From: Gammaproteobacteria bacterium | Lineage (GTDB): Bacteria; Pseudomonadota; Gammaproteobacteria; S012-40 | Direction: 5' to 3' | DNA length: 64,000 nt | Assembly: GCA_029883265.1 (NCBI GenBank) | Contig: JAOUJM010000001.1 | Location: 10,511 to 74,510 of the forward strand | Part shown: one piece after another, positions 1,104 through 19,553 of the stretch | How positions within the stretch are numbered: position 1 is the stretch's first letter | Layout: the number at the start of each line of letters is the position of its first letter | Position numbers and translations under genes: made by a program | Notes under the pieces: generated by a model | Told to the model about the DNA's origin: nothing | The model's database searches: none | The model's input: only the letters and a program-made list of their open reading frames with translations

Positions 1104-1306
1104 ACAACTTAATCGGTTGCACCCAAATACCAGATCATAAACTCATAGAACCCATCCCATTTTGCAGGGATTTCGCCATTCACAAAACGATCTCTAGTTG
1201 CTAGCTCAAAGTCCCAGACCCTGCCTGTAATCTTGTCATACAAATAGCAACCTTCTCCCTCTGCAGTAGTGAAGCATATATAGTTTTCTGGTACTTTCCA
1301 GATGAC

Positions 1307-1699
1307 CTATACCCCAAATCCTGTCAGTTCCATTTTACCTGTTGATGTGTTTGGCCTGATCAAGACACCCAACCCTCGATTATCGATAACATCGAACCCC
1401 GGCTTAGTAGCCATGAGAATACTGTCACCTCTAGAGGTAGCAGAATTTAAGAATGGTACATTGACTTCGTTCCAAAATCCTTTTGGCCCCAGTGTTCTGA
1501 ACAACTCATCTGGCGCATTTAATACATTGAAGTTACCAGGCTTTGGACCAAAGTCCATACTTTTAACATTCCCAAGCTCATCAATGACTGACGCCATATC
1601 CTTGTTATAAGATCCAAGGATTGTCGTTGTTTTTCCCTGCTCGGTCTGAAGAATTACCCCGGATGATGCTTGATGGTTTAGCGTTTTGTTTGGAACTAC
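1307..1699 (-). CDS. Orphan polymorphic-toxin C-terminal domain A (startless; begins VVPNKTLNHQASSG at the conserved junction)
   Basis: Track ORF 1307..1597 continues in frame upstream to GTA GTT CCA AAC AAA at 1699. There is no ATG until codon 36. The junction motif is shared with the other modules. The function of the domain is unknown. Confidence 0.6.
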   Translation of the reverse strand, partial: VVPNKTLNHQASSGVILQTEQGKTTTILGSYNKDMASVIDELGNVKSMDFGPKPGNFNVLNAPDELFRTLGPKGFWNEVNVPFLNSATSRGDSILMATKPGFDVIDNRGLGVLIRPNTSTGKMELTGFGV

Positions 1700-1707
1700 C
1701 CACTAGT

Positions 1708-2172
1708 CTACTTTGACTCTCCCCAATTAAATCTCACATCAATCCAAGACTTACCTTCCAACACTGACAATAGCTCTAAATCACTAAACAAAGAGTTCAC
1801 GAATTTCATGAATTCCCTTAACTGTTGCTCAAATTCTCCGCTATAGCTAGAAAGACTAAAAGGGCTTTGCTGAGAAATAGTACCACGCTTCTGTACCCAT
1901 GAATCCAGACTAAAGTCTTTATCTGTCTTATCATCAATCACATAAATGACAATGTAGTCGCCCTTATCCCCGAATGCTGGATAGAATGTAAATTCCACAG
2001 AAACACCATTATCACCGCTTAGCAAATACTCGTAGCTATCTCCTGCTGGCCCCTTACTTGATACATGCTTAGTGTGTTTAAGCCTAAATCCAATACTAGT
2101 TAGACTGTCTAACATCACCAAGAATGATTCAACTTTTTTGGCTTTATCTTTTACTGGTGTGGAGTTTTTCAT
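1708..2172 (-). CDS. Putative immunity protein for toxin B
   Basis: 154-aa ORF. Its ATG overlaps the toxin B stop (ATGA at 2172). It sits immediately 3' of a CT module, the classical toxin-immunity arrangement. Confidence 0.55.
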   Translation of the reverse strand: MKNSTPVKDKAKKVESFLVMLDSLTSIGFRLKHTKHVSSKGPAGDSYEYLLSGDNGVSVEFTFYPAFGDKGDYIVIYVIDDKTDKDFSLDSWVQKRGTISQQSPFSLSSYSGEFEQQLREFMKFVNSLFSDLELLSVLEGKSWIDVRFNWGESK

Positions 2173-2609
2173 TACTTACTCCCTCCAAATATGGTCTGCT
2201 TCTCAACAGCATAAAATGGGCTAAAACCCTGATTATGAGGATTACCTATATCAATGATTGTGTACCCTTCAGATTCAATCTTCTGAGCCCAAGCTTTGTT
2301 CGCCTGATACATTTCAGTTTTAACAAGCTCAGGATTAGTCAACCTACGACCACCTTCGGTTAACCTCTCGAATTCTTTGCGTGCTGAACGAGGAATCATG
2401 TCACCATCAAAAAGTTCTACATCGTAGCCTTTCTTTTGGAGCACAGCAGCATAATCTCTTACACCATTGATTTTATTATTTCCCATCGCTCTACCAATCA
2501 CAGCGACTTTTCCGTTATCACCCTGAGCAATCCTCTGTGCTTTTAGGCCGTCTACTTCAAGCGATCTAATGCTACCTAAATCGAAGAGTTTCTTGTTTGG
2601 AACATCAAA
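2172..2609 (-). CDS. Orphan toxin C-terminal domain B (begins FDVPNKKLFDLGSIRSLEVDGLKAQRIAQGDNGKVAVIGRAMGNN...)
   Basis: Track ORF 2172..2501 extends in frame to the DVPNK junction at ~2606. A stop lies just upstream at 2612..2610. Confidence 0.6.
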   Translation of the reverse strand, partial: FDVPNKKLFDLGSIRSLEVDGLKAQRIAQGDNGKVAVIGRAMGNNKINGVRDYAAVLQKKGYDVELFDGDMIPRSARKEFERLTEGGRRLTNPELVKTEMYQANKAWAQKIESEGYTIIDIGNPHNQGFSPFYAVEKQTIFGGSK

Positions 2610-2880
2610 CTATTTCAGTTTTTATCCTTTTGACACACTCCGCTAAAGCTCTATAGCTTGGGGGTTGAACGCAATAGGCATCAGATACATTTCGTGAAAA
2701 ACCAAGAGCTTTGTCTGATATATCGTCGACATTCCCACTCTTCAGTGCTTCCAAAAGTGCTTCAGCTGTCGCCACGATATTCATCAATTCTTCCCGATCC
2801 TCGGAATTTGAAGTATTTATTGCGTCTCTTCTGTAGAGAGCTAAGGTCGTCTTGAGTAATTCAATAATGTCATTTTGCAT
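2605..2880 (-). CDS. Putative immunity protein for toxin C
   Basis: 91-aa ORF whose ATG overlaps the toxin C stop (TAATG at 2880). Confidence 0.5.
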   Translation of the reverse strand: MQNDIIELLKTTLALYRRDAINTSNSEDREELMNIVATAEALLEALKSGNVDDISDKALGFSRNVSDAYCVQPPSYRALAECVKRIKTEIV

Positions 2881-3320
2881 TAATTTAACTCCTCAATTAT
2901 TGCTCTCGGGCCTTGAGCATTGTAAGTTTGCTGTCCTCCTCCAATTAGGTTCGGCTTTGGCTGCGGCGCTACTGTACCTTGAAACACGGTTGTTCCGGGC
3001 TGATATTTTACAACAGCAGCCTTGGTTACCTGGTTGTTCGGTAGAGCCAAAATCCGTATTCGATCCTCAATTTTCTCAATCCATTGGGGAGTGGACCATC
3101 TACCTCCAAGTTTTGCTCCACCTTTTAACCCATCAAAGTATCGAAATTCTACTAATTCACTGTTGAGTGTTTTTACTCTAAAGGTCTCTAACTCAAAAGC
3201 CTTTATGAGTTGATTTCTTTCTGAGGGTAGTAAATCTTGCCTAGTTTCTCTAAGGATAGATCTAGCCTGTCTGATATTTGCCGCCGCTTCGGATCTGATC
3301 CCTGCACTGTCTGGAACAAC
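2880..3320 (-). CDS. Orphan toxin C-terminal domain C (startless, 146 aa; VVPDSAGIRSEAAANIRQARSILRE...AIIEELN)
   Basis: Not in the ORF track because it has no Met. Hand translation from GTT GTT CCA GAC at 3320 is open to TAA at 2882..2880. The junction codon directly follows the TAG stop (3323..3321) of immunity D. Confidence 0.55.
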   Translation of the reverse strand, partial: VVPDSAGIRSEAAANIRQARSILRETRQDLLPSERNQLIKAFELETFRVKTLNSELVEFRYFDGLKGGAKLGGRWSTPQWIEKIEDRIRILALPNNQVTKAAVVKYQPGTTVFQGTVAPQPKPNLIGGGQQTYNAQGPRAIIEELN

Positions 3321-3542
3321 CTATTTTATTTCTTCTACACGTACCCCGAGCTCCCTTAACCTAGAAAAAACTGCGTCAGCCAAGCTTTCATCAGAAATAG
3401 GCAAATCATACTCTCGGCCGTCCTCGTTCGTAAAACAAAGCATTTCAGAATAAGGAGTAACTTCGATATAAAACCGACCAATCTCAACACCAGTTTCAGC
3501 TATAAATTTATCAGCTAAATCTCTCATATCTTCATTCAGCAT
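3321..3542 (-). CDS. Putative immunity protein for toxin D
   Basis: 73-aa ORF. Its start overlaps the toxin D stop at 3542. Its stop is immediately followed by the module C junction. Confidence 0.5.
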   Translation of the reverse strand: MLNEDMRDLADKFIAETGVEIGRFYIEVTPYSEMLCFTNEDGREYDLPISDESLADAVFSRLRELGVRVEEIK

Positions 3543-4069
3543 TATTTTGCACCTCCTGTACGAGGTGCCTTGCCGAACCCTGGATAATAGATTGTATTGT
3601 CAGCATTGCCTGTACCCCAGAAAATTCTTGTTGGCTGCGGTTTAGCCAAAGGGTTTTGTTGCAACTGCCTAAAATATCTTGCATTAACTAAATCCATATC
3701 TTTTAGAGATGGCCATATTTGTGTAGCAGTTTCATTCGGATGAACATGACCAATCAATCTAGAATCACGCGGAACTGGGCTAGTCCAAGCATTGCCACTG
3801 TATAGCCTCTTAACCAATGTCCCATCGCCTAATCTTTCAGTGGTCAACGCAAACTCGACGTTTCTTCCATCAAGCCTGCCTAACTCATAGACATCGCCAA
3901 ACCGAATCGACCTATCCGTTAACGTTACACCTTGAGTTCCTGGTAGAGCTCCAGTTTGACGTAACTCAGCCATCGATATATGTGAACCCAGGCCCTCAGT
4001 ATGCCTAAAGCCATTAGAGTCTACTTTACCGGCCTGATGTAAAACATCGAAAGCACTGTCTGGAACAAT
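3542..4069 (-). CDS. Orphan toxin C-terminal domain D (begins IVPDSAFDVLHQAGKVDSNGF...)
   Basis: Track ORF 3542..3973 extends in frame to the IVPD junction (GTCTGGAAC at 4058-4066). Confidence 0.55.
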   Translation of the reverse strand: MVPDSAFDVLHQAGKVDSNGFRHTEGLGSHISMAELRQTGALPGTQGVTLTDRSIRFGDVYELGRLDGRNVEFALTTERLGDGTLVKRLYSGNAWTSPVPRDSRLIGHVHPNETATQIWPSLKDMDLVNARYFRQLQQNPLAKPQPTRIFWGTGNADNTIYYPGFGKAPRTGGAK

Positions 4070-4070
4070 A

Positions 4071-4361
4071 CTACTTGGCTTCTATGAAAGCTCTTTCTGC
4101 TTTTGCTATGTCCTCAGCTAACTTCGAATCAAATGGCCAACTATCTGCTATCGCATGTGTAAGGCCTAAGTTCCGCTGACTCTTTTCTGGTAAAGAACCC
4201 GAATTCAAAGTGTCTAACATCTTCTGAAGCTTCTGTTTAAAAGCATCCTTCTGTACTTTTGGTACGTTGGCTAGTTTAGGATCAGGAGAGCTAGATAGCT
4301 CTCGATCCAATGCCTCCATAGCAGATTTGACCAGCTTAGTTGCCTGCTCTATTGAACTCAT
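4071..4361 (-). CDS. Putative immunity protein for toxin E
   Basis: 96-aa ORF directly 3' of toxin E. Its stop TAG (4073..4071) abuts the module D junction. Confidence 0.5.
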   Translation of the reverse strand: MSSIEQATKLVKSAMEALDRELSSSPDPKLANVPKVQKDAFKQKLQKMLDTLNSGSLPEKSQRNLGLTHAIADSWPFDSKLAEDIAKAERAFIEAK

Positions 4362-4799
4362 TTATGGCTCCAATAAGTCGTTTGTATCTAATATATATTT
4401 CTGAATTTGACTGCCTTCAACACCTACTCCCATTGAAGATGCACGCCCTTCAAGAATTTTAGTATTAGGCCTAATTTGGAATTGCTTCATGTAGGTCATC
4501 TGATTCCATTCTGGTTTTAATGCTAGATTTTGTCTTGAAGCAGGGAAAGTTTCGAACAGGTAACGACCTTTCTCCCACGCTTTCACATTATCGTAATACC
4601 TGATACCAAATTCGCTATCTGTTGCTTGTCTCAAGTTGAGAGTCTTAATATCAAAACTCTCTAGAACTTGCTTCCTGATATCTCGTGGCACTCCAGCATT
4701 TTGTAAGAACTGCGATGCTTCCTTAACCCCTGCGTATCTTTGACCAAGTACGCCCTCTAATTCAGCCGTAGAGATGTTGTCGGCTTTGTTTGGAACTAC
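4362..4799 (-). CDS. Orphan toxin C-terminal domain E (begins VVPNKADNISTAELEGVLGQRYAGVKE...)
   Basis: Track ORF 4362..4691 extends in frame to GTA GTT CCA AAC AAA at 4799. The first junction codon shares one nucleotide with the TAG stop of immunity F (TAGTAGTTCCA). Confidence 0.55.
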   Translation of the reverse strand, partial: VVPNKADNISTAELEGVLGQRYAGVKEASQFLQNAGVPRDIRKQVLESFDIKTLNLRQATDSEFGIRYYDNVKAWEKGRYLFETFPASRQNLALKPEWNQMTYMKQFQIRPNTKILEGRASSMGVGVEGSQIQKYILDTNDLLEP

Positions 4800-5191
4800 T
4801 AATTAGGTAACTGCTTTACTAATGCATCGAAGTTCTGCTTAAGTTTTATCGCAATTTCACTGAGCTGTTCCTCGTCGCTCATAGGCGTGTCAGGAACTCC
4901 AGCTAGTAACTCCTCTATCGATAACTGCTCCCCGTCAGATATCAATGAGTTCAAATATGACCACTCGGCATTATCTAATTCTTCATTGCTTGCTTCGATA
5001 GTGCCGATCAAACAATTTACTTCCCCATCCCTTTCGGATTGATAAAAACATAACTTACAGAGTGGGGAAGAATAAAAAACTAGGGATTTATTACCACCAT
5101 CCAAATCTAAAGTTTCGTCTAGTTTAAAACCCTTGGCAGAAAAGAAATCTTCCAAGGCCCTACGCACTTTTCTCTGAAAATCGATAGTCAT
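4799..5191 (-). CDS. Putative immunity protein for toxin F
   Basis: 130-aa ORF. Its start overlaps the toxin F stop (5188..5191). Confidence 0.5.
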   Translation of the reverse strand: MTIDFQRKVRRALEDFFSAKGFKLDETLDLDGGNKSLVFYSSPLCKLCFYQSERDGEVNCLIGTIEASNEELDNAEWSYLNSLISDGEQLSIEELLAGVPDTPMSDEEQLSEIAIKLKQNFDALVKQLPN

Positions 5192-5664
5192 TGTTTGTCA
5201 GCCTTGATCCAAGAATTACCATCTCTCACATAACCATAATTCTTGGCGTTGGTTTCAAGATATTTAATCTCCATCGCCGTGAAGCTTTTTGGTCTATTAG
5301 TTAAAACTTCTCTGATTGTTTCGCCATGGAGATCAATTCGACCAACGCCACGCTCTAATTGACCATGAAGGAATTGTTCATTAACAGACCAAGCTTTTGC
5401 TCTACCTTCTGTCTTGCTTAAACCATTGGTGAGTTTTGAGAAAAAGCTGGAGTCCGTCTCAAACCATACTCCACCATTAGCCTTTGCCTCACCGATATAC
5501 CCACCATTGTCAACCCACTTGCCCAAAACTACACGATTTGAATTCTGATTAACATGGGTGGACATTTCTGCTATTTGTCGAGCATACTGATCCGCATTAG
5601 TGCCCGATGTATTGCGTAATCCATTAATCGCATCATTCAGAGAGAGCTTGTTTGGAACAAATAA
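5188..5664 (-). CDS. Orphan toxin C-terminal domain F (begins LFVPNKLSLNDAINGLRNTSGTNADQYARQIAEMSTHVNQNS...)
   Basis: Track ORF 5188..5565 extends in frame to the FVPNK junction (TTTGGAAC at 5651-5658). A stop lies just upstream. Confidence 0.55.
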   Translation of the reverse strand, partial: LFVPNKLSLNDAINGLRNTSGTNADQYARQIAEMSTHVNQNSNRVVLGKWVDNGGYIGEAKANGGVWFETDSSFFSKLTNGLSKTEGRAKAWSVNEQFLHGQLERGVGRIDLHGETIREVLTNRPKSFTAMEIKYLETNAKNYGYVRDGNSWIKADKQ

Positions 5665-5675
5665 TCAGCTAGTAG

Positions 5676-6059: not shown

Positions 6060-6846
6060 TCACCGCCACGAGGAAGTGTTGAATCAAACCTCCAGACTTT
6101 CTCTATATATTTGTTCGTGGTATCAAATCCTAGTGCTTGAAACGCTTTCTCAGTTGCCTTTTGTGCAGATTGCCCATGGGGCTGATAATGACCCGAAGTG
6201 TTGTCGATATATTTCAACTCGCCATTTACAGCTTTGACCTCGCCGGCAGCAATTACAGGACGATTGTTGGCAATATCAATATGACCGCCACCAGGCGCTT
6301 TCCTGGATTGTTTACCAAGCAGCAAAGTGCCATCCTCGAGTACTACATAATTGGCTTTTTGGTTAATCTCAGTAAATCTATTCGGATTTATAAGGTTAGC
6401 CGGACCAACGCTATCTTCAGGAAATTTATTCGTGAACACTGAAGTTTTGTTGTCTGGAACAAATCCGTCTACCTTGCGTAGTTTACCCAACATAGAGGAC
6501 CCAGCCAAGGTTAAAGCAAAATCAACTGGAGATTCTGGGATCAACATGTCGAACAATTGCGCACCTACAAACGCTCCAGGACTTAAATTCTTGAATGCAA
6601 AATGCTCCATTGAGTTTTTAACTTGTGATTTACCACTCCTCATATCGCTGGTAAATTTGACAGAATTTTCATAGATATTTCTAAGTATTGGATCTTCTAT
6701 CAAGTCACTGAGCTTATTAATATCTTGAATATCAGTGTCAACTCGCCATATTTTTGCACCGTTTTCATCAGAGCCAATACTATCTGAAACATCAGCTCTA
6801 ACAGGACCATGTTCATTTTTCGCAAGCTGTAATCCGTCCAGTGATA
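6041..6846 (-). CDS. Orphan module G: ~130-aa pre-junction RHS-tail fragment (…VDFALTLAGSSMLGKLRKVDGF) plus VPDNK junction plus CT domain
   Basis: Track ORF 6041..6868. Its first 7 codons (MRSLGRL) are encoded inside the IS66 left end (6847-6868). The internal junction is GTCTGGAAC at 6452-6460. Confidence 0.5.
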
Positions 6847-6930
6847 GTAAGCGTCCCAAACTCCGCACCTTCCCAGTTCGCTTAAGATCCGTTAGCCTGT
6901 TTCTGTGTAAATTACCGGCAGGAGCAAGCC

Positions 6931-7290
6931 ATGAACGATCTCACTCAATCATCCATCAAAAACATTCGCACGGATAAACGCAGCAAGGGCCCTGAGTATT
7001 GGCAGGCGCATATAGAGGCCATGAAACAAAGTGGTCTATCAAAAACCGCGTACTGTAAACAAAACAATCTTTCGACGGTGACATTTTTTAAATGGGAAAA
7101 GAAACTCGCCAAGGCCTCGGCTTTGTTTGTACCTGCGAAGTTGGAGATGCCGGTGTCTCCAACCTCATCCAACGAGATGATTCGGATTGATCTACCCAAT
7201 GGCTGTGTGATTTCCTTGCCGGTATCGTGCTCACCCGCAGAGGGTTTACGTTGGATTGAGACCTTGATGCGTGTTTCATGCTCAAGCTAG
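6931..7290 (+). CDS. tnpA: IS66-family TnpA (orf1, HTH)
   Basis: 119 aa. It is the first of three overlapping same-strand ORFs after a GTAAGCG-type IR. Its paralogue at 18817 is about 85% identical. Confidence 0.7.
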   Translation: MNDLTQSSIKNIRTDKRSKGPEYWQAHIEAMKQSGLSKTAYCKQNNLSTVTFFKWEKKLAKASALFVPAKLEMPVSPTSSNEMIRIDLPNGCVISLPVSCSPAEGLRWIETLMRVSCSS

Positions 7291-7634
7291 ATCAAGAGAT
7301 TCAGATTTACTTCGCGATTAACCCGATCAACATGCTGAAAAGCTTTGACGGTTTAGCAGCCTTGGTGGTGGATGTGATTCAACAAAATCCCCTATCAGGG
7401 CATTTGTTTGTGTTTCGTAATCGAGCCGCTGATAAAATTAAACTACTGATCTGGGATCGCAATGGCTTTACCATCTACTATAAAAGACTCGAACGCGGTC
7501 GCTTTAAGTTTCCTGAGTTGGATGACTGCACTCATCTTTCGATCACTCGTCAAGAACTGGATTTATTGTTTGATGGTATTGACTTCACTCAACTCAAACG
7601 CCTACCCACACTTCACTATAAATCAGTGATTTGA
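7278..7634 (+). CDS. tnpB: IS66-family TnpB (orf2)
   Basis: 118 aa with the motifs IYFAINPINMLKSFDGL…LFVFRNRAADKIKLLIWDRNGF…YKRLE characteristic of IS66 Orf2. It overlaps the tnpA end. Confidence 0.8.
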   Translation: MLKLDQEIQIYFAINPINMLKSFDGLAALVVDVIQQNPLSGHLFVFRNRAADKIKLLIWDRNGFTIYYKRLERGRFKFPELDDCTHLSITRQELDLLFDGIDFTQLKRLPTLHYKSVI

Positions 7635-7646
7635 TCCGTCTGATAC

Positions 7647-9185
7647 TTGCATTACAATAGTGCCATGCAAGGACGCACGAAAACACATTATTCCTACTCT
7701 GAACTCAAAGCTTTAGTCGATGAACTTCAAAAAGAAGTGCAGCTGCTTCGAGAGAAAAATCGTTTGTTACTGCATCGTCAGTTTGCCGCGAAGTCCGAAC
7801 AGACTACCGATGATCAGTTGTCCTTGTTTGATGCGGATACTTCATCGTCCGAAGTAAATCAAAACAATGAAAAAAACAACAACATCGTCGTACTGGCACA
7901 TCATCGCAAGAAACGACAACGACTGACGTTTTCTGATGACCTACCCAAACGTAGAGTTGAGATTGATCTGGATGAACACGATAAGACCTGCGATTGTTGC
8001 GAAGCACCACTGACGCATATTGGTGAAGACATCACTCGAAAGATTGAATTTATCCCAGCGAAAGTCCAAGTCGTCGAATACGCTCGATTAAAATATGCGT
8101 GTAAATCCTGTGAAGACACCATTAAACGCCCACCCTTACCGAACTTTATCTTACCAAAAAGTTTCGCCACACCAAGTTTACTCGCGCATTTGATTGTGAG
8201 TAAGTTTGGTGATGGCTTACCTTTGTATCGCATTCAACAACAACTGGCCCGTCAAGGTGTGCATTTACCGCGTTCCACCATGAGTACACTGTTACTCAAA
8301 GCCGCTGATTTACTCGATCCGGTTTATAAATTAATGATCAAGCAAGTATTGTCCGGCCCGCGTATTTGGACAGATGACACGATTCTTCCCAAACAAAACG
8401 ATGATCCGAGTCGAAACAAAATCATTCAATCCAGATTATGGGTGTATATTGGTGGACCTCTTAAAGATCCACCCTTGGTCATTTTCGATTACACCAGCAC
8501 TCGATCCTCGAAATGGCCGAAGGACTTATTGTCTGATTACCAAGGCTACAAACATGCCGATGGTTATGGCGGCTATAAATCGTTGCATGATACAGGTAAA
8601 ATTCACTATGTGGCGTGCTGGAGTCATGCGCGGCGAAAGTTTTTTGAGGCCTCATTACTCACCGAGCAAACCGGTAAAGCCAAGACCATGATTAAATACA
8701 TCAAACTGCTTTATAAGATTGAAACCGCTTGTGAAAAATATGGTAATAAAAAACGTAAACGGTTTCGACGAAGATATGCCACACCCATACTCAACACCAT
8801 CAAAGCCTATGCCGATCAACATGCGCCGCATATTCCACCCAAAACCAGTTTGGGTAAAGCGTTTACTTATTTGCTTAATCAATGGCATGGACTGGTTCGT
8901 TATCTCGATGCCGGTCACCTAACCATTGACAATAACCTGGCCGAACGACACATCCGACCCATTGCCGTGGTTCGAAAAAGTTTTCTGTTTGTCGGCTCGG
9001 ATCGCGGTGGTCGTGCGGCTGCGATTTATTATTCGGTGTTGGGGTCGTGTAAAAGTTTGAGGGTGAATCCTTATAAGTATTTGATGGATTTGTTTGAGCG
9101 GTTGCCAAATTTTGAATCAAAATTGGAGTTAAGCAATTTGATGCTAACTCGCTGGACTAAACAAGATGACGAACGAAAAATCTGA
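7647..9185 (+). CDS. tnpC: IS66-family transposase TnpC (orf3)
   Basis: 512 aa. It has an N-terminal leucine-zipper-like coiled coil, a CxxC…CxxC zinc-finger region (KTCDCC…CKSCED) and a DDE-type core. It is about 88% identical to the 19554..21044 copy. Confidence 0.85.
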   Translation: MHYNSAMQGRTKTHYSYSELKALVDELQKEVQLLREKNRLLLHRQFAAKSEQTTDDQLSLFDADTSSSEVNQNNEKNNNIVVLAHHRKKRQRLTFSDDLPKRRVEIDLDEHDKTCDCCEAPLTHIGEDITRKIEFIPAKVQVVEYARLKYACKSCEDTIKRPPLPNFILPKSFATPSLLAHLIVSKFGDGLPLYRIQQQLARQGVHLPRSTMSTLLLKAADLLDPVYKLMIKQVLSGPRIWTDDTILPKQNDDPSRNKIIQSRLWVYIGGPLKDPPLVIFDYTSTRSSKWPKDLLSDYQGYKHADGYGGYKSLHDTGKIHYVACWSHARRKFFEASLLTEQTGKAKTMIKYIKLLYKIETACEKYGNKKRKRFRRRYATPILNTIKAYADQHAPHIPPKTSLGKAFTYLLNQWHGLVRYLDAGHLTIDNNLAERHIRPIAVVRKSFLFVGSDRGGRAAAIYYSVLGSCKSLRVNPYKYLMDLFERLPNFESKLELSNLMLTRWTKQDDERKI

Positions 9186-9193
9186 ACCGGCTT

Positions 9194-9748
9194 TCAATTA
9201 CTAAGTCGAAGCACTTTACCCGAGGATACTTTGAAATGACTAGTAACGATTTTTTGTTCGCCGTTTATGATATAAATATAGTTTGCAATGATAGTTTTAT
9301 TTTCTATTTTTATGTCCCTAAGATTGCTAACTATGGCGTCACCATCTAGCAACCTAAAGCTGCTATCACGAAATTGAAAAATTAGTAAATTATAAAGATT
9401 TCCGCCACTATTGTAATACACGAGCAATTCTGGAGTTGGTTCTTCATCCATGTTCTCTTGTGCAAAATCAACGGAATGACCCTCTAGCATATAAATTATC
9501 TTAGGATAGCCATTTTCAATTGTTAACAAATAAGTTTCGTTTGTGGGTAGGCAATCATCAGCATCATCAATGTAGAATATTTTTAAATCACGGATTTCCA
9601 TGCTCTTCTTTGAATGAATATGAAACTCCATTTTGTTTGAGCCAGACTCAAATTTGTTGCACTTTTCCACAGATGAAAAACAATTAGTAATTCCGGCAAT
9701 ACTTATTAAAATCACGTATAAAGCATGTCTTATATGAGCCATTTTCAC
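9194..9748 (-). CDS. Putative immunity protein for toxin H, with N-terminal signal peptide (periplasmic)
   Basis: 184 aa. Hydrophobic leader MKMAHIRHALYVILISIAGITNCFSS. Its start overlaps the toxin H stop (9745..9748). Its stop lies 8 bp from the tnpC stop, in convergent orientation. Confidence 0.55.
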   Translation of the reverse strand: MKMAHIRHALYVILISIAGITNCFSSVEKCNKFESGSNKMEFHIHSKKSMEIRDLKIFYIDDADDCLPTNETYLLTIENGYPKIIYMLEGHSVDFAQENMDEEPTPELLVYYNSGGNLYNLLIFQFRDSSFRLLDGDAIVSNLRDIKIENKTIIANYIYIINGEQKIVTSHFKVSSGKVLRLSN

Positions 9749-10509
9749 GGTTTACCTTGTGTCTTAAGATAGTTTTCAATAAATTGCACGGTGGTTCCAT
9801 GCCCCTTAGTCGTATTGTAATAGACTTTCCAGTCCTGCGCATAAGAGTGAGCACCAGGTGATTCAATGAAAGATAGTTGACTTCTATATCTCCAATATTG
9901 TAAACCAGCCATCGCTGCAGCATATTTATCATTATTTCGGAGTTCAGAATGCAAATCACCACCATTTGTGAAGCTCATTACTAACTTTGCTATTTTGGGT
10001 TTATATGCAAGGACATTTGCCCATATATCATCATGCGTATTCGGTTCCATTTGAAACAAACCTTTTGCAGGGCCATTACTAAATTGATCCCTGTATTTAA
10101 GCGAACTTTCTTGCGCAGCAGTACCAACTAGAACTTCTTGGAATTCGGTTCGGTATTTTGAAAAAGTTTTGTCTATTTTCCCGAGCTCATCAATGGCAGG
10201 TTTAATCGAGTTAGTAAGCAAAGCATCTGCTTTCTTCTTGAAATGAAGATTATTATTAAACGTATATTTCTCAAGTTCATCCAAGTCAATTTTATACCCT
10301 GATGAATCGAACAAGGACCCCTCCCCAAACGTTCCATCTTGAGGCGCTAAGCTAAGAAGATACTTCGCTACTTCAGTATTGTCACCCCAATCAACGTCGG
10401 GCAACTCGTTTTTATCAAGAACCGCGTTTTGGCCCACACTGGCCAGCATGTTTGAACCAACTGGGTTATTTTTCCTAGGGGCAGAGTTTTGGACGCTTAC
10501 TGGAACTAC
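9745..10509 (-). CDS. Toxin H: lytic transglycosylase (SLT/lysozyme-like) C-terminal domain entered through the IS66 IRR (…LFVVP-VSVQNSAP-RKNNPVGSNMLASVGQ…)
   Basis: Track ORF 9745..10449 extends in frame through 10478-10500, which is translated as VSVQNSAP, to GTA GTT CCA at 10509-10501. The motif LVGTAAQESSLKYRDQFSNGPAKGLFQMEP matches the SLT catalytic signature (E-S … GLMQ-like). Confidence 0.6.
   Translation of the reverse strand, partial: VVPVSVQNSAPRKNNPVGSNMLASVGQNAVLDKNELPDVDWGDNTEVAKYLLSLAPQDGTFGEGSLFDSSGYKIDLDELEKYTFNNNLHFKKKADALLTNSIKPAIDELGKIDKTFSKYRTEFQEVLVGTAAQESSLKYRDQFSNGPAKGLFQMEPNTHDDIWANVLAYKPKIAKLVMSFTNGGDLHSELRNNDKYAAAMAGLQYWRYRSQLSFIESPGAHSYAQDWKVYYNTTKGHGTTVQFIENYLKTQGKP
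10478..10500 (+). repeat. IS66-type right inverted-repeat-like sequence (GGGGCAGAGTTTTGGACGCTTAC), copy 1
   Basis: 20/23 complementary to the IRL at 6847. Identical to 22817-22839. Confidence 0.6.
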
Positions 10510-11168
10510 AAATAGTTAGATTTTTCCAATTCCCACCATTCCAAAAATAAACTCCAGTCATACCAGCTAACAACGGTACCATCGTAAGGCTCGCTTATCC
10601 TAGTACTACAAAATTGCTTACCAGCCAAAGAACTTATTTTTTCTAATGCTAAATCTCTAAGCTCGTAAAAATAATCGCTGTTCATCCCTTTCTCTGCAGC
10701 ATAATCATCTTGCCTAAAATGTATCAAAGGAGATATTTCTCCTTTTTTTGCATAAGTATAATAATGATACAAAGCTATCCTTCTATACCCCAAATCATCT
10801 GAAATAAGATAATCCGCCATTATTTCTCTATAATTAGGATAGTTATCCTTTAACCAAACAAATAACTCTAAAGCTTGATAACAAACATATTTACTTTCAT
10901 GCTTTAAAAGTTTTTCCAATCTACCCACTAAATATTTAAAAAAATCAGTACCGAATGTACCAGGCTTATTCTTTTCTAGAAGCGCGTTTAGAAAAAGAAA
11001 CCCTGTTGATATATCAGCTTGGTCATCAGACGATAAACAATTATGTACCCCCTGTATTACGACTGAGTTTATACCCAGCTTTTGAATATCCGAATGGGTA
11101 AGAGTACTAGTATCCACACCAGTAGCATCTGATAGCAATTTTCTCAGTTCCTCTGATGGGTTCATCAT
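10506..11168 (-). CDS. Putative immunity protein for toxin I
   Basis: 220-aa ORF. Its start overlaps the toxin I stop (11165..11168). Confidence 0.5.
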   Translation of the reverse strand: MMNPSEELRKLLSDATGVDTSTLTHSDIQKLGINSVVIQGVHNCLSSDDQADISTGFLFLNALLEKNKPGTFGTDFFKYLVGRLEKLLKHESKYVCYQALELFVWLKDNYPNYREIMADYLISDDLGYRRIALYHYYTYAKKGEISPLIHFRQDDYAAEKGMNSDYFYELRDLALEKISSLAGKQFCSTRISEPYDGTVVSWYDWSLFLEWWELEKSNYL

Positions 11169-11596
11169 GGTCTAGTTATCCATTTAAGCTCATTGACAAA
11201 TAATGATTCAGTATCAATTTGTTTCACAAAATCAGAATGAAGTTCTTTCGGAATATATGTTTGAGTACCTGATCCACCTTTCACTCCTCCCTGCCAAGCT
11301 TGAAGCCCAGGCTTGATCTCAAACACTCCAAGTTGCTCGGCATTATTTCCCCATGCTTTGATATTAAACAACTCTTCTGCATCCATTGAGTTCAATGGCT
11401 TCATATTACTAAAGAATTCTCCAGTACCGCGTTGACCTTGTCTCTGAGCTTGGAAATACAGACCTGGCTTAACTTCCCCAAACCCTTTAGTTGAAAAAGA
11501 ATCAAGCTTAGATGCACTTATATTTCCAGGTGCAATCAGGCTCGGTGATGGACCTGACTCAGGTATTACAACTGAAGATTTATTGTTTGGAACTAC
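11165..11596 (-). CDS. Orphan toxin C-terminal domain I (begins VVPNNKSSVVIPESGPSPSLIAPGNISASKLDSFSTKGFGEV...)
   Basis: Track ORF 11165..11404 extends in frame to GTA GTT CCA AAC at 11596. Confidence 0.55.
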   Translation of the reverse strand, partial: VVPNNKSSVVIPESGPSPSLIAPGNISASKLDSFSTKGFGEVKPGLYFQAQRQGQRGTGEFFSNMKPLNSMDAEELFNIKAWGNNAEQLGVFEIKPGLQAWQGGVKGGSGTQTYIPKELHSDFVKQIDTESLFVNELKWITRP

Positions 11597-12021: not shown

Positions 12022-12023
12022 CT

Positions 12024-12539
12024 TTAACTTCCCGGAGGTAGAATAATAATTTTGCCATCAGGCGTTATCGTAATTGATCCAGATGGAATATATGGTTGAC
12101 CAGCTTTCAAGTCTCCACCAGCTCTAGTCCCAGATCTTTGGAAAAATTGCTCTGGCGTTGTCATTGTTTCTATAGTTTTTGTACTTTTACCAGGAACAAT
12201 AGTAAGTTCTTCCATTTTTAAGAAATTTGGATTATCAGCTGCGGCTTTATTGACGTTTTTAATTATTCTTTGAGCTTGCTTTTCAGATAAGCTACCGAAA
12301 CCGACATCAATATCACTACCTTTGCCGAAATCGCCTCTTATTCGGCTACCACCAAATACTACTGTTGAATTTCTTTTTAGCCCCTGCTCTAAAATTAACG
12401 TAGCTTGCTCAGTTGTCAAATCAGGTACATGCTTTGATAAAAATGCAGACTGTTCTGCAATGCCTGATGTGGTTAATGTAGTTTGCTCAGGATATGCATT
12501 AAATACAGATTTATCTGTCCAGCGTGTGTTTGGAACTAC
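12024..12539 (-). CDS. Orphan toxin J with nucleotidyltransferase-fold motif (begins VVPNTRWTDKSVFNAYPEQ...)
   Basis: Track ORF 12024..12419 extends to the junction at 12539. VVFGGSRIRGDFGKGSDIDVGF fits the G-S…D-x-D signature of pol-beta-superfamily nucleotidyltransferases. Confidence 0.5.
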   Translation of the reverse strand, partial: VVPNTRWTDKSVFNAYPEQTTLTTSGIAEQSAFLSKHVPDLTTEQATLILEQGLKRNSTVVFGGSRIRGDFGKGSDIDVGFGSLSEKQAQRIIKNVNKAAADNPNFLKMEELTIVPGKSTKTIETMTTPEQFFQRSGTRAGGDLKAGQPYIPSGSITITPDGKIIILPPGS

Positions 12540-12985: not shown

Positions 12986-12986
12986 T

Positions 12987-13544
12987 TTAACGACCTCCGC
13001 TATTCGTTATCTCGATTAGTCGCTGTTGCCAATAGATTTTTCTGTCAATATCAAAAGCTGATCTATCAACAGGATATGTTGGATGTTGACTTTGAGTTGG
13101 CCCAGATCCCGCGCCATTCATTTCACGCCCTCTATTGGTTTTGTATGGGTGCAATGCCTCACCTCCTTGGCCTGTTTTTGACCGATGCGTTAAATCACTT
13201 AGTTCAAACAGAGGACCGTTCGCATTTTGGCGACTAAGATGCAATTCAATGCGAGACTGTACACCATTCTTCAGAACATAAGGAGCATTTCCCACTTCCA
13301 ATAGCTCCCTATTTGTAGTTGTATAGGTCCTTTTGGTTTTTGGATTGGTAATTTTTACCACTAAATCGGGATCAATTTCTTGTTGAAAGACTTTGTATTT
13401 AATCCCTGTCCCATTTACTGGGGCTACCCACACAGCTTCGGTTTTAAAATAACTAGGATTCTTGGCGTTTTTCGCCCGTAGCGCAACAAAGTCTATCTTA
13501 TTCGGTTCTACTGCTCCCTCAAGTTCATATTTGTTTGGAACTAC
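12987..13544 (-). CDS. Orphan toxin C-terminal domain K (begins VVPNKYELEGAVEPNKIDFVALRAKNAKNPSYFKTEAVWVAPVNG...)
   Basis: Track ORF 12987..13433 extends in frame to the junction at 13544. Confidence 0.55.
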   Translation of the reverse strand, partial: VVPNKYELEGAVEPNKIDFVALRAKNAKNPSYFKTEAVWVAPVNGTGIKYKVFQQEIDPDLVVKITNPKTKRTYTTTNRELLEVGNAPYVLKNGVQSRIELHLSRQNANGPLFELSDLTHRSKTGQGGEALHPYKTNRGREMNGAGSGPTQSQHPTYPVDRSAFDIDRKIYWQQRLIEITNSGGR

Positions 13545-14254
13545 TTATTAAAAAGCGCCTTCCTCAAGACTTTCTGAGCTTCTGCCTCTTCACCTGTAGA
13601 CTCTTTAAAGCATTCATCCTGTACATCAAGTTTAAGTACGCTTCCTAAATCAGAGACACATTCCATAGCAAAATTATCTGCCCCTATATCCCTCAAAAGA
13701 TCCTTACTCATCCACATAGTAGAACCAACACATTCAATATACCCATTCTTCAGATCCCATCGCCCTGGGTTCCTAGAAATATCAATCACTTCACTTTCAA
13801 GAGGAAATGGCAAACCATTGCTCTTCTTCGGTAGATTCGAATGATCTCGTCCTTCGGACTCATAGTAAGCAATATCTTCCATGTTTTGCCAACGGTCATA
13901 TTCTCCATCATATAACCTAGCCTGAACAAAAAACGGGTCATTTACTATTTGAGTAACCCATTTTTCTGCATACTCTTTAGACGCAGCTAGATTCTTTATA
14001 TCTAACCTGGAGAAATCCAGATCTGCTATATATGAAAACTCAATACTCCCCCCATCAAGCTCAATAAAGAAGCTATCGGCCTTATTCTTAAGAAGAGTTT
14101 CCGAAACATCAGTAAAACCTAGTTCTTTGCCAGTGAATCCATCCGCCACTTTTTTATCGGCATATATTTGTTTAAATTCTTCGGTAAGCTTATTCCATAA
14201 CTTATAAGCTTCAGCGTAAGCTTTACCTCTAAGAACAATTTCAATTTGTACCAT
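13541..14254 (-). CDS. Putative immunity protein for toxin L
   Basis: 237-aa ORF. Its start lies 6 nt after the toxin L stop. Confidence 0.5.
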   Translation of the reverse strand: MVQIEIVLRGKAYAEAYKLWNKLTEEFKQIYADKKVADGFTGKELGFTDVSETLLKNKADSFFIELDGGSIEFSYIADLDFSRLDIKNLAASKEYAEKWVTQIVNDPFFVQARLYDGEYDRWQNMEDIAYYESEGRDHSNLPKKSNGLPFPLESEVIDISRNPGRWDLKNGYIECVGSTMWMSKDLLRDIGADNFAMECVSDLGSVLKLDVQDECFKESTGEEAEAQKVLRKALFNK

Positions 14255-14259
14255 GATAA

Positions 14260-14676
14260 TTATTCACCAAACTCTTTAATAATTACTGGAATATTTCGCT
14301 GCTTGCCATACTCAATTAAATGCTTCGCATCATTAAAACCACCTGGCTGAACCCTAATATCCAATATTTTCGTTGCCGGAACGTCGGAAACGGTAATGGT
14401 AGTCTTTTGCAAGTGGTCGATATGAGATCTCATATCATACTCCCAAGATTTACCACCAGTATTAACCGTTTTCAGACTAACAACATTGTTTCCTTGTTGG
14501 AAATCAATCGAAGGGAAGTTATTAGACTTAAATGGTTCGCCAGTTTTTGGGTTAATAGAGTTATCGGAACGAGCCCAATCTTTATAATCTGTTTCTGTAA
14601 GGTGTGACTCAATCTGTCTACCACGAACCTTCGGATCTAGATCCCAAACTTCTCTGCCTAACTTGTTTGGAACAAC
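14260..14676 (-). CDS. Orphan toxin C-terminal domain L (startless, 138 aa; VVPNKLGREVWDLDPKVRGRQIESHLTETDYKDW…MRSHIDHLQK…EFGE)
   Basis: Not in the ORF track because it lacks Met. Hand translation is open from GTT GTT CCA AAC AAG at 14676-14662 to TAA at 14262..14260. The TAA stop of the upstream ORF (14679..14677) is directly adjacent. Confidence 0.55.
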   Translation of the reverse strand, partial: VVPNKLGREVWDLDPKVRGRQIESHLTETDYKDWARSDNSINPKTGEPFKSNNFPSIDFQQGNNVVSLKTVNTGGKSWEYDMRSHIDHLQKTTITVSDVPATKILDIRVQPGGFNDAKHLIEYGKQRNIPVIIKEFGE

Positions 14677-15075
14677 TTATCGCACAGTTACACTCCAAGA
14701 AAAGTCTGGATATCCATCATTTTCTGTGACTCCTAAGACCAGCTTTTTGGCACCTATCACGCACCTAATTTCGCCTAACTCTTCACTTATCTCATTAGGA
14801 TGTAGCAGATCAACGAACTGCCTATAAAATGGCTCGGTATTTTTCGACTTCAAAATTAGAGTTAGCGCGTCTTTTAAACCAGGACTATTACTCTCCACAA
14901 CAGCATTTGGAGTATCAACAGACAGCATAACTGGATTCATGCTTGAAGACAGAACACGTCCTATAAACAACTCACACAAAGATAACGCGCTTTCTGACGC
15001 CTCATTCAATTTGGGCGGAAGAATTATATCGACGGTTTTTTTGTTTTCACCAGTATTCATAGCACCTTCTTCCAA
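14677..15075 (-). CDS. Second small ORF of module M (accessory or immunity protein)
   Basis: 132 aa. It overlaps the 3' end of the zinc-ribbon ORF and ends immediately before the module L junction. Confidence 0.4.
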   Translation of the reverse strand: MEEGAMNTGENKKTVDIILPPKLNEASESALSLCELFIGRVLSSSMNPVMLSVDTPNAVVESNSPGLKDALTLILKSKNTEPFYRQFVDLLHPNEISEELGEIRCVIGAKKLVLGVTENDGYPDFSWSVTVR

Positions 15076-15293
15076 CCCCCTCGAAAAGCTTGGTCAGGAA
15101 ACTCTAATACCCATAATTGTCCACAGTGTTTGCACTTGTATTGAATTTTTATAAATGGCCCTGAATGATCTATTTGTCCGTAACTTTTCAACTCGCCCAT
15201 TTCAACCATCTGGGCAATCCGCTGCCGAAATTCAACGAATTCCTTCTCAGAATTAAACCGTTCTTGGCACAACTCGCAGACTACACAACTCAT
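15057..15293 (-). CDS. Putative immunity protein for toxin M (CxxC…CxxC zinc ribbon)
   Basis: 78 aa with CVVCELC … CKHCGQ. Its start overlaps the toxin M stop. Confidence 0.45.
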   Translation of the reverse strand: MSCVVCELCQERFNSEKEFVEFRQRIAQMVEMGELKSYGQIDHSGPFIKIQYKCKHCGQLWVLEFPDQAFRGGWKKVL

Positions 15294-15793
15294 GGCTTCA
15301 ACCTAAAGATGTGGGTATCCTCTATGGGTACTGGATCAAGCAAGAATTGAGTCCATCCTCCCTGTCCAGCTTCTGGATAGGAATTTGTATAAACCTCCCA
15401 CCCTCGTGTTCCTTCATTTCCAAATGGCCTTGCGACACTAAATCCGCGGACCTTATCTACGGGGATCGCGACACCATAAGTTGGTTCTCCCCACTCAGGC
15501 TTGATTTGAGCACCGCGAGCAATAGCACCACTGGAGTGCGAAAATTCTGTTGTTGAGTAGCCACGAACACTTCCATAACGCAGAGACTTATCAAGACCGT
15601 CTTCAGATAGATATCTAAAAATAAAATCCTGACTTTCTATAGACTCGGAGAGACGGCGTTCGTAGTTCAACTGCGAAAGCTTGTCAATCCTACCTGCACG
15701 CTCTTGCGGGCTTAGGTGACCATACTTTTCTTTCAGTGCTAATGAGCTTGCTCTCGCATCCAGAACAACCTGCGGTGCATTGTCTGGAACAAA
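15290..15793 (-). CDS. Orphan toxin C-terminal domain M (begins FVPDNAPQVVLDARASSLALKEKYGHLSPQE...)
   Basis: Track ORF 15290..15670 extends in frame to TTT GTT CCA GAC at 15793. It is in frame with, and directly after, the TGA stop of immunity N. Confidence 0.55.
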   Translation of the reverse strand, partial: FVPDNAPQVVLDARASSLALKEKYGHLSPQERAGRIDKLSQLNYERRLSESIESQDFIFRYLSEDGLDKSLRYGSVRGYSTTEFSHSSGAIARGAQIKPEWGEPTYGVAIPVDKVRGFSVARPFGNEGTRGWEVYTNSYPEAGQGGWTQFLLDPVPIEDTHIFRLKP

Positions 15794-16264
15794 TCACAAC
15801 AAGCCAAATTTTTCACCCTTACCAATTACTTCAATCGTAACTGAGTAGTCGGACTTTTTTATAGAAACATGTTCTATCAAACCATCAGTTAAATTCTCTA
15901 CACAAAAATCAATTTTTTCCGATTCACTTTTTGGCAAGAAAACCTTATCAGAATACTTTGCCAAATAAGGTAACTTTTTAACTATTGGAATCCTCAATAA
16001 CGGTGTGAGTTCTCTAAATACATCCAGGAATTTGTCGCTATCCAGAGAAGGAGATAAAATTTTCAAAGCTCTTTGAAAACTTCCGATATTTTCGTTTGCC
16101 ACAAAATCATCAAAACTTTTACCGGAAACTATAGCAACCTTTCTAGTGGGTAGGCTTTTACCTTGCCAAATAGTAAGAAACGCTTTAGAAAACTCAATCG
16201 TTCTTAATTTCTCTGGCTCTTCTTTTAAAAAATCTTTTGCCAAATTAATGCTCATATGCGTCAC
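15794..16264 (-). CDS. Putative immunity protein for toxin N
   Basis: 156-aa ORF 3' of toxin N. Confidence 0.5.
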   Translation of the reverse strand: MTHMSINLAKDFLKEEPEKLRTIEFSKAFLTIWQGKSLPTRKVAIVSGKSFDDFVANENIGSFQRALKILSPSLDSDKFLDVFRELTPLLRIPIVKKLPYLAKYSDKVFLPKSESEKIDFCVENLTDGLIEHVSIKKSDYSVTIEVIGKGEKFGLL

Positions 16265-16267
16265 CTT

Positions 16268-16792
16268 CTATTTAAAACCATAGATGGTTTTTATTCTATC
16301 CCATGCATCAAACCGTGTAGCCAGACTACCATTTTCTCCTAATAAAACCCTATTTTCATATATGGTTCCTAGTTCTGGTTTTCCTATGCTGTCTGCAAAC
16401 TTTTGTTCAGCTAGGAATGCTCTCGCCTCAAGATAAGACTTATTAGACATATTTTTCACACCGGAAATATCATCGAAAAAGTGTTGCCCTTCATGTGCAG
16501 TAATTGTAGCAGCTCGTTTTAACCCAGTATTTCCGGTATAAATTAGATCTTGGTTTAACTCAATTTGATTTGTACCAGGAAAATACCGACCATTAAGCCC
16601 ATCTAATTTCGAATAAACAATCTCAACTTTTCCATTTTGAATAGCAGTTGCCAATTTAACTGATCTAGCATCCCCAGTTTCCAATATACGGCTAATCATT
16701 TGAGGAGAAGGCGCTTGATTTCCGTTCGCTAACCTAACTCCATCACCCCCAAACATTACTTTACTTTCTAACTGAAGGTTGTCTGGAACAAC
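16268..16792 (-). CDS. Orphan toxin N with HExxH zinc-metallopeptidase motif (begins VVPDNLQLESKVMFGGDGV...)
   Basis: Track ORF 16268..16756 extends to the junction at 16792. It contains TITAHEGQHFFDD (HExxH). Confidence 0.5.
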   Translation of the reverse strand, partial: VVPDNLQLESKVMFGGDGVRLANGNQAPSPQMISRILETGDARSVKLATAIQNGKVEIVYSKLDGLNGRYFPGTNQIELNQDLIYTGNTGLKRAATITAHEGQHFFDDISGVKNMSNKSYLEARAFLAEQKFADSIGKPELGTIYENRVLLGENGSLATRFDAWDRIKTIYGFK

Positions 16793-16814
16793 CTAATCCC
16801 AAACATCAGTCAAG

Positions 16815-17096
16815 CTAACAAACAGACTCTAGATCCTTGATTAAAACCATAACCTGATCCTGATTACATTCAACAAAGAAACTGTCGATAGTAGAAGTTG
16901 TTTGCAAAGTAATAGATTGCTTAGCTTTAAGCTTTTCTGCTAGTTCTTTTGTTACATCTTCACGATTAGAATTAGTTATATGTACCGAACACACATCCTT
17001 ACCATAAACAACCATAGCTTCGTAGGAATCTTTTAAAGACCACCATTCTCGACGATCTAAAACTCCAGCTGCCTGTTCTCTTATTAAATTAGCCAT
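16815..17096 (-). CDS. Putative immunity protein for toxin O
   Basis: 93-aa ORF. Its start overlaps the toxin O stop (17096). Confidence 0.5.
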   Translation of the reverse strand: MANLIREQAAGVLDRREWWSLKDSYEAMVVYGKDVCSVHITNSNREDVTKELAEKLKAKQSITLQTTSTIDSFFVECNQDQVMVLIKDLESVC

Positions 17097-17563
17097 CAGT
17101 CTACCCTAATATTATCTGTAGAGTTGAATATGCTGCGCTGCCCAGCACTATTCAAGATCAAACTTTGACTTTGTTGCTGCCTAAATATATCCAATACCAT
17201 ACGATCCCCGGGCCAGCCTGATGCATCTAGTTTAATGTCTGTCGTTCCGGGATGAGTATGACCAGACCACTTATAGCCTTTATCAGCCAAACCTTGTAAT
17301 TCAGATTTGGTTAATGGAACACCTCCAGCATTCCCTCTAAACACTAGGCGTTGACTACCATTAGTAAACAAAGCAAACTCATCACCTGTCTTTGCCGTAA
17401 GCGCTGCCAGATCAGTCACGCTTATTTGCTTCTTATGAAGAGTTGTACTTGATAATGTATCTGGTAATTGACCCAAAACCCGTTGTTGACGCTTTGACAA
17501 ATCGCCAAAGCCCCAAGCTATTTCGCTAGGAGAACTAGCTGAAATCGTCTTGTTTGGAACTAC
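17096..17563 (-). CDS. Orphan toxin C-terminal domain O (begins VVPNKTISASSPSEIAWGFGDLSKRQQRVLGQLPDT...)
   Basis: Track ORF 17096..17500 extends in frame to the junction at 17563. The TAG stop of immunity P overlaps the junction (GTAG). Confidence 0.55.
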   Translation of the reverse strand, partial: VVPNKTISASSPSEIAWGFGDLSKRQQRVLGQLPDTLSSTTLHKKQISVTDLAALTAKTGDEFALFTNGSQRLVFRGNAGGVPLTKSELQGLADKGYKWSGHTHPGTTDIKLDASGWPGDRMVLDIFRQQQSQSLILNSAGQRSIFNSTDNIRVD

Positions 17564-18732: not shown

Positions 18733-18755
18733 GTAAGCGTCCTAAACTCCGCACC
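18733..18755 (+). repeat. IS66 left terminal inverted repeat (copy 2)
   Basis: GTAAGCGTCCTAAACTCCGCACC. The canonical IS66-family end starts GTAAGCG. Confidence 0.75.
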
Positions 18756-19523: not shown

Positions 19524-19553
19524 TTCTGGATTAACCTGCATTACAATAGCGCC

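Follow-up and report, generated by a model that had tools for sequence, protein, structure and literature searches.

A VP(N/D)x-coding DNA motif at the cassette junctions of an orphan toxin-domain/immunity array in a gammaproteobacterium

Orphan toxin cassettes and motif-bounded swapping are not a new principle, as both have been known for CdiA and Rhs since 2011. CdiA orphans are demarcated by the VENN-coding sequence, and in some of them no sequence is left ahead of it (Poole et al., 2011, PMC3150448). Across strains, the homology of the cassettes extends exactly from one VENN-coding sequence to the following one, and in Yersinia pestis Microtus a 3.6-kb deletion has fused an orphan to cdiA (PMC3150448). 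Here we analyze a window of 64,000 nucleotides (nt), i.e., the whole stretch from position 10,511 to 74,510 of contig JAOUJM010000001.1 (Gammaproteobacteria bacterium, assembly GCA_029883265.1), which contains a long array of toxin-domain/immunity cassettes that are each opened by another sequence, GTTCCA[AG]ACA. We propose that this motif is probably a cassette boundary of the VENN type and a short-homology recombination point, as in the CdiA orphans, with a new sequence.

The core motif GTTCCA[AG]ACA is present in 16 copies on the minus strand between window positions 1095 and 18247, where about 0.25 copies are expected by chance in 64 kb, and in zero copies on the plus strand of the window. 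The copies define 14 orphan cassettes and two head copies, organized in two sub-arrays (18247-9194 and 6463-955). Every copy opens an uninterrupted toxin open reading frame (ORF) of 129-184 amino acids (aa), whose end adjoins or overlaps the start of a small (immunity) ORF of 73-237 aa. The original prediction, made from the sequence without database searches, had placed an array of C-terminal toxin (CT)/immunity cassettes at 1685-17563. The array is real, yet its limits lie further out, at 18247 and 1095, and its nature is borne out by the ORFs and by the toxin domains recognized in three CT ORFs, namely TNT, LHH nuclease and nucleotidyltransferase (NTP_transf_2). Homologues of the toxin domains at 17560 and 15790 (CT17560 and CT15790) are located at the very C-terminal end of giant proteins, among them Rhs and LysM-Rhs proteins, and the toxin family of CT6460 is widespread, with 320 database matches. 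The toxin-domain/immunity cassettes are silent orphans of a polymorphic-toxin system, and the array that they form is headless; toxicity of the CT domains and neutralization by the adjacent immunity protein are predicted. Similar to the cdiA-CT/cdiI orphans (PMC3150448), the toxin fragments lie in tandem, lack a start codon, are each followed by an immunity gene and carry the motif-coding sequence at their 5' end. Insertion sequence (IS) elements are frequent in such arrays and also occur here. No terminators were found between the cassettes and no Rfam family matched the window. The junctions are as follows, with the position of the G of the core in parentheses:

18234..18247, minus strand: junction 1 (18244), cgtGTTCCAAACAA; head copy with 163 open codons upstream (18733-18245), ending at the left inverted repeat of IS66 element B
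17834..18244, minus strand: CT 1, 136 aa, TNT (NAD+ glycohydrolase) domain; immunity ORF at 17560-17853
17550..17563, minus strand: junction 2 (17560), gtaGTTCCAAACAA; immunity stop TAG (17562-17560) overlaps the G of GTT
16779..16792, minus strand: junction 3 (16789), gttGTTCCAGACAA; immunity stop 22 nt upstream, toxin-frame TAG abuts the motif
15780..15793, minus strand: junction 4 (15790), tttGTTCCAGACAA; immunity stop TGA abuts the motif in the toxin frame
14663..14676, minus strand: junction 5 (14673), gttGTTCCAAACAA; perfect TTGTT-CCA-AACAA; immunity stop TAA abuts in frame
13531..13544, minus strand: junction 6 (13541), gtaGTTCCAAACAA; immunity stop TAG overlaps the G; LHH nuclease toxin domain
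12526..12539, minus strand: junction 7 (12536), gtaGTTCCAAACAC; immunity stop TAG overlaps the G; nucleotidyltransferase-like toxin domain
11583..11596, minus strand: junction 8 (11593), gtaGTTCCAAACAA; TAG overlaps the G; final cassette of sub-array 1, with CT at 11165-11593 and immunity ORF at 10506-11168
6450..6463, minus strand: junction 9 (6460), tttGTTCCAGACAA; second head copy with 130 open codons upstream (6850-6461), ending at the left inverted repeat of IS66 element A
5648..5661, minus strand: junction 10 (5658), tttGTTCCAAACAA; immunity stop 14 nt upstream, small hairpin in the spacer
4786..4799, minus strand: junction 11 (4796), gtaGTTCCAAACAA; TAG-TAG, the G of the immunity stop being motif position -3
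4056..4069, minus strand: junction 12 (4066), attGTTCCAGACAG; immunity stop TAG, 1-nt gap to the motif
3307..3320, minus strand: junction 13 (3317), gttGTTCCAGACAG; immunity stop TAG abuts in frame
2593..2606, minus strand: junction 14 (2603), gatGTTCCAAACAA; immunity stop TGA over positions -4..-2
1686..1699, minus strand: junction 15 (1696), gtaGTTCCAAACAA; immunity stop 8 nt upstream, in frame with the TAG of the motif
1095..1108, minus strand: junction 16 (1105), gttGTTCCAGACAA; toxin domain 15 recurs here in a second, 97%-identical copy, which is interrupted by an IS110-family element at about 955

Alignment around the core, the check that had been suggested beforehand, gives a position logo of the 16 copies with a sharp-edged conserved block from -3 to +10 (taking the G of GTT as reference) and background immediately outside. 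The 14-nt consensus of these copies is GT(A/T)GTTCCA(A/G)ACAA. The form initially put forward, TAGTTCCA(A/G)ACAA, captured a recurrent motif, but exactly this form fits only five copies; the 13-mer of the earlier description, allowing up to two mismatches, gives 19 matches versus 4.1 ± 2.1 in shuffled sequences. The motif is thus real, whereas its first description was partly wrong. Its GTA-GTT allele occurs in 6 of the 16 copies, and the commoner form, (G)TTGTTCCA..., is without a stop. In frame, the motif encodes (V/F/I)-V-P-(N/D)-(K/N/S/T) just ahead of the toxin domain. Apart from the motif, a repeat search over the array found nothing that is common to the modules.

The conservation of this junction concerns the DNA and not just a peptide VVPNK, as had been proposed: the synonymous sites are invariant. 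The junction codons are GTT (16/16), CCA (16/16), AAC (10/10) and GAC (6/6), while in the genes of the array GTT accounts for 42% of the valine, CCA for 40% of the proline, AAC for 25% of the asparagine and GAC for 21% of the aspartate codons. Under independent draws such invariance has a log10 P of -22. The comparison with homologous toxin domains of a Sedimenticola metagenome-assembled genome (MAG; locus L133, see below) points in the same direction. These share 46-51% amino acid identity with their counterparts in the window and use the same codon at only 31-43% of the conserved residues; the junction codons are identical despite flanks that are diverged and synonymously saturated.

These data bear directly on the possibility that selection acts on the peptide only, with (V)VP(N/D)K serving as a linker, a processing signal or a delivery signal and with the identity of the DNA reflecting the recent spread of a common pool. 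Such an explanation accounts for the motif being always in frame and directly ahead of the toxin domain, and would agree with the sequence QVPKGF that Tas1 of Pseudomonas aeruginosa has at the position aligned with the junction. Also the variation of residue 4 and of the residue preceding VP, seen among 28 junctions (those of the window and of the loci L101, L110, L133, L135 and L252 described below), fits in. Yet, all three wobble positions are invariant in 16/16 window copies, two of the codons are rare, and the motif has stayed unchanged where its flanks are saturated at synonymous sites. Furthermore, the orphans retain the motif though they are not translated within a parent. Database homologues of CT17560 and CT6460 align from just past the motif and do not have it themselves, indicating that the motif belongs neither to the toxin domain nor to any single delivery domain and that toxin function does not need the peptide. 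We therefore consider selection on the peptide only to be improbable.

Breakpoints lie at the motif edge. Two 152-nt stretches, 957-1108 and 1548-1699, are duplicates (97% identical) whose homology stops precisely at motif position -3, its 5' edge, and they follow two different immunity genes, as is expected for a cassette breakpoint. In L133, one toxin domain is found at 1581 and at 783 behind different upstream contexts, and the homology starts exactly at the motif. In the model that we favor, each cassette has the motif at its start and the immunity stop at its end, packed against the following copy of the motif. In an intact system the motif is situated in frame in the expressed parent gene, at the linker just before the toxin domain. 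Since parent and orphans have no other sequence in common, strand exchange would take place within the motif. If the parent copy recombined with an orphan copy further downstream, by deletion or by gene conversion, the delivery domain would be joined in frame to a new toxin domain, and the matching immunity gene would move along. Conversely, an incoming cassette inserted at the parent copy would displace the old cassette downstream. Cassettes that lose the motif would no longer take part in the exchange, and this would account for the invariance of the DNA, also at its synonymous sites. The DNA-level recombination joint of the original prediction was right in kind. The anatomy, the constraint on the DNA, the breakpoints and the parents with orphans in other genera are observed, and from them we infer recombination through the motif and the enzymes responsible for it.

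The same DNA core is found in other genera, which the original prediction had suggested to look for in rhs loci of relatives; it joins unrelated parent genes to toxin domains there. Genomes (one per species) were scanned with TARGTWGTTCCARACAA, and the genome and metagenome scans each gave at least 120 matches, mostly chance singles. Judged by core counts in the fetched loci, the true arrays among the matches listed are L101, L110, L133, L135 and L252 only. In L133 a LysM-containing parent (...NWGSV/VPDS, with the slash at the junction) is followed by three orphans, and two toxin domains of the latter are homologous to CT17560 and CT6460 of the window. L101, from a Pseudomonadales MAG, has an unclassified parent of at least 1124 aa (...TTSLT/VPNN), then orphans. 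In the case of L135, from a Cellvibrionaceae MAG, a 595-aa parent (...SSEDV/VPNK) lies directly after tssM-tagF-pppA, and from the junction onward it matches the (p)ppApp-synthetase toxin Tas1 (PDB 6ox6). Next to this parent come a Tis1-family immunity gene, an HD-domain gene and then an orphan junction with the stop abutting the motif. L110 and the metagenome contig L252 provide further copies of the motif. In L135, L133 and L101 the exact DNA core is in frame in intact parents, with the orphans in the same orientation. The L133 and L101 parent junctions were not needed to detect these loci, and the exact core is nonetheless present. BLASTP shows the five pre-junction regions to be mutually unrelated.

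Past the orphan of L135 (6440-6780, plus strand) there is a frameshifted remnant with 76% identity to parent residues 37-149, which is a relic of a second parent copy. The viral scan with the DNA motif produced 36 single matches, consistent with chance. Metagenome contig L199 (7342-7906, minus strand) was set aside as well, as it has three 279-nt tandem repeats, in each of which TAAGT(A/G)GTTCCAAACAATAA precedes an ORF of only 18 codons, and no toxin cassette array.

The differences to the described systems are as clear as the similarities. Unlike in CdiA, the motif is VP(N/D)x (GTTCCARACA) and not VENN. Pre-toxin families (PT-VENN PF04829, DUF637 and others) gave no match in the heads or in the parents of the relatives, PF04829 and FHA-type not even at an E-value of 10, and an assignment of the parents to PT-VENN or CdiA was rejected for lack of support. 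Nearly all orphans retain just one codon ahead of the motif, the pre-motif sequences are mutually unrelated within the window and across genera, and the window is without an intact parent. Similar to the main and orphan loci of Rhs in Salmonella, where displaced toxin/immunity pairs lie downstream and can be activated by recombination with the main gene (PMC3967940), the array consists of such pairs. Rhs orphans, however, share hundreds of bases of core homology and the core end PxxxxDPxGL, whereas here 14 nt are shared and DPxGL is absent. The long one-directional rows of toxin-defence cassettes with a short repeat in between resemble the rAID-1 arrays of Bacteroidales and integron arrays (bioRxiv 10.1101/471110), and in all of them the structure suggests stepwise acquisition. 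In contrast to the XerD-family or IntI recombinases and the intergenic repeats or attC hairpins of those systems, the present arrays have no linked recombinase among the ORFs examined, an in-frame coding repeat and no consistent hairpin. Several gammaproteobacterial genera contribute to the set of motif-bearing delivery genes, which includes a type VI secretion system cluster effector, large exoproteins of the LysM type and of other types, and both kinds of head seen in the window. Promoterless silent cassettes bounded by short direct repeats that also occur in the expression site are a feature of Borrelia vlsE/vls and Neisseria pilE/pilS. There, segmental gene conversion of a surface antigen takes place among mutually homologous cassettes, whereas the cassettes described here are unrelated toxin/immunity pairs.

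The occurrence of the same 10-14 nt ahead of unrelated parents in several genera, together with the very sharp edges of the motif, could also be explained by a dedicated site-specific recombinase or nuclease that targets the motif, with integron-like or mating-type-like excision, insertion or switching; we regard this as unlikely. The consensus of the 28 junctions is a hyphenated palindrome, TTGTT-CCA-AACAA, with an invariant central wobble base; eight junctions are perfect and 15 have four of the five arm pairs. In this palindrome the G of GTT is matched by the C of the rare codon AAC/GAC. Moreover, 14 nt is short for RecA. The palindrome was, however, spotted post hoc and its arms are just 5 bp. 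No recombinase or nuclease gene is linked to the motif among the ORFs examined in the window, L101, L133 and L135, the sole transposases being those of IS66 and IS110 elements inserted away from it. Folding of the junctions as attC-like sites was tried and rejected, as z-scores range from -2.8 to +0.9 with no consistent hairpin, and conserved flanking arms are missing. It is doubtful that TTGTT-CCA-AACAA is a portable DNA adaptor of unrelated toxin-delivery genes, read by a dedicated recombinase or nuclease in an integron-like exchange inside coding sequence.

The original prediction had further tied the junction to the stop codon of the preceding immunity gene, either abutting or overlapping it. 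The tight packing holds, as this stop overlaps, abuts or lies 1 nt off the motif in 11 of the 14 orphans, but a fixed relation does not exist. The stop overlaps the G of GTT (G-TAG-TT) in four orphans (17560, 13541, 12536 and 11593) and the -3..-1 codon in two (4796, with TAG-TAG, and 2603); it abuts the -3..-1 codon in the toxin frame in four (15790, 14673, 3317 and 1105, as TAA/TAG/TGA-GTT/TTT-GTT) and leaves a 1-nt gap in one (4066). Spacers of 8, 14 and 22 nt separate stop and motif in the orphans at 1696, 5658 and 16789, respectively. Relative to the toxin frame, the immunity frame is 0 in four, 1 in three and 2 in seven orphans. Because frames and offsets vary in this way, the stop is not an integral part of the site. 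Of the two observations that would have spoken against the original prediction, a variable relation to the stops was made, whereas conservation of the peptide alone was not. The site includes a stop in one frame, as had been supposed, only in its GTA-GTT allele, the commoner GTT-GTT and TTT-GTT forms being stop-free. Stops near the motif would rather be a by-product of cassette packing. A toxin-frame stop is found 1-7 codons upstream of VP in 14/14 orphans, and such stops would also keep the orphan toxin domains untranslated. That motif and stop form a translational signal (termination-reinitiation coupling or recoding) by which orphan toxin domains are made from the array transcript can practically be dismissed: the stops beside the motif in most orphans and the lack of terminators between cassettes would suit it, but the immunity frame is 0, 1 or 2 with spacers from overlap to 22 nt, the motif has neither start codon nor Shine-Dalgarno sequence, parents hold it internally with no stop nearby, and there is no Rfam match.

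We thus return to the motif as a cassette boundary and short-homology recombination point, against which several observations also weigh. No recombination event was caught at the motif, and the three metagenome contigs with the array (L001-L003) are 100% identical to the window and therefore uninformative on rearrangement. The 14 nt of the motif are far below the length that RecA uses efficiently, leaving the enzymology unexplained. As the window has no intact parent, the array could here serve at most as a reservoir or as a collection of immunity genes. GTA is paired with AAC in 6/6 window copies, a linkage suggesting that the motif usually travels whole with its cassette instead of being split by crossovers. 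In addition, since the DNA motif itself served to detect the relatives, any locus with a recoded junction would have escaped notice, and one terminal, decaying copy in L101 does use AAT.

The genes surrounding the array are relevant to the question of its parent:

21847-41001, minus strand: Rhs-repeat/LysM protein of 6384 aa carrying a toxin domain of its own; not the array's parent
21095-21823, minus strand: ankyrin-repeat immunity-like gene, 242 aa, with a signal/lipoprotein-like N-terminus; partner of the giant Rhs gene
6848-9190, plus strand: element A of the IS66 family (tnpA/B/C), with the left inverted repeat GTAAGCGTCC directly against head 2
18734-21050, plus strand: element B of the IS66 family, sharing 87% identity with A, with the left inverted repeat directly against head 1
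1-955, minus strand: IS110-family (DEDD) transposase gene with a 5' non-coding leader of about 250 nt; the element runs off the window

The original prediction envisaged a single crossover by which rhs is fused to a new CT. Besides two LysM domains, the giant Rhs protein contains a hydrophobic segment rich in Gly/Ala and, at its C-terminus, a lipase-like domain with GHSLGG; its C-terminal part is closest to giant LysM proteins of Acinetobacter (33-41% identity). The junction core is absent from its toxin boundary, even with one mismatch, and DPxGL was found neither near its C-terminus nor before any toxin domain of the array. BLASTP of the head regions against Rhs gave E-values above 0.2 only. 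The Rhs gene was hence rejected as parent: without the motif, and with a C-terminal region unrelated to the sequences upstream of the heads, the proposed fusion cannot happen here. The upstream regions of the heads at 18244 (163 codons) and 6460 (130 codons) are unrelated to each other as well. A word-indexed database search returned no homologues of head 1, and when head 2 was searched together with its toxin domain by exhaustive HMMER, only the toxin part gave matches. Both heads are 5'-truncated and abut the IS66 left inverted repeat, and an intact recipient or parent gene with a junction was not found in the window. Both IS66 copies have the same orientation, with their other side against the stop of the preceding gene and no recognizable right inverted repeat. 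This arrangement suggests either IS-mediated deletion of the 5' parts of the heads or a composite element carrying sub-array 1. The IS110-family element is inserted within the duplicated last toxin domain and not at the motif. Targeting of the motif by IS110 (of the bridge-RNA type) or IS66 was rejected, the insertion points being elsewhere.

The sequence L(T/I)VPNKVTNIHNN at the LysM domain end of Acinetobacter proteins was considered as a lead and treated as a coincidence, as the window reads IIIPNVV there, with different DNA. The giant Acinetobacter LysM proteins P0012-P0022 all have LTVPNKVTNIHNN at the LysM domain end, and thus the peptide VPNK there too; their polymorphic break occurs about 45 residues beyond LTVPNKVTNIHNN, inside a membrane-like segment (after CGGIAQIVMIVVA). 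Three proteins of 1751-2371 aa (P0004, P0005 and P0007) end in the CT17560 toxin domain and have no Pfam match and no recorded Rhs repeats. At the end of sub-array 1 (9194-10449, minus strand), two ORFs lack the junction motif, one of 234 aa that begins at an ATG of its own and one of 184 aa whose start resembles a signal peptide; together they may form a stand-alone effector/immunity pair. Toxin domains 15 and 16 are matched by 18 nt at 10178-10195. Between Rhs and flagellar/tetratricopeptide-repeat genes (42370-46089, minus strand), ORFs of 491 and 310 aa are without Pfam match, and a third, of 424 aa, is a DUF6973 protein with a weak wnt-family match.

A full-text literature search (VPNK with toxin) found no published description of a VP(N/D)x/GTTCCARACA junction. 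New are the VP(N/D)x junction sequence, the constraint at the DNA level with rare codons fixed across genera, and the placement of one joint behind unrelated delivery domains. The annotation logic of the window is corrected in that the array does not belong to the adjacent giant Rhs gene. With a joint that allows exchange, arrays of this type could also be traced in metagenomes simply by their sequence. If the joint allows exchange, it would explain the movement of toxin domains between secretion systems, which has been assumed but is poorly documented.

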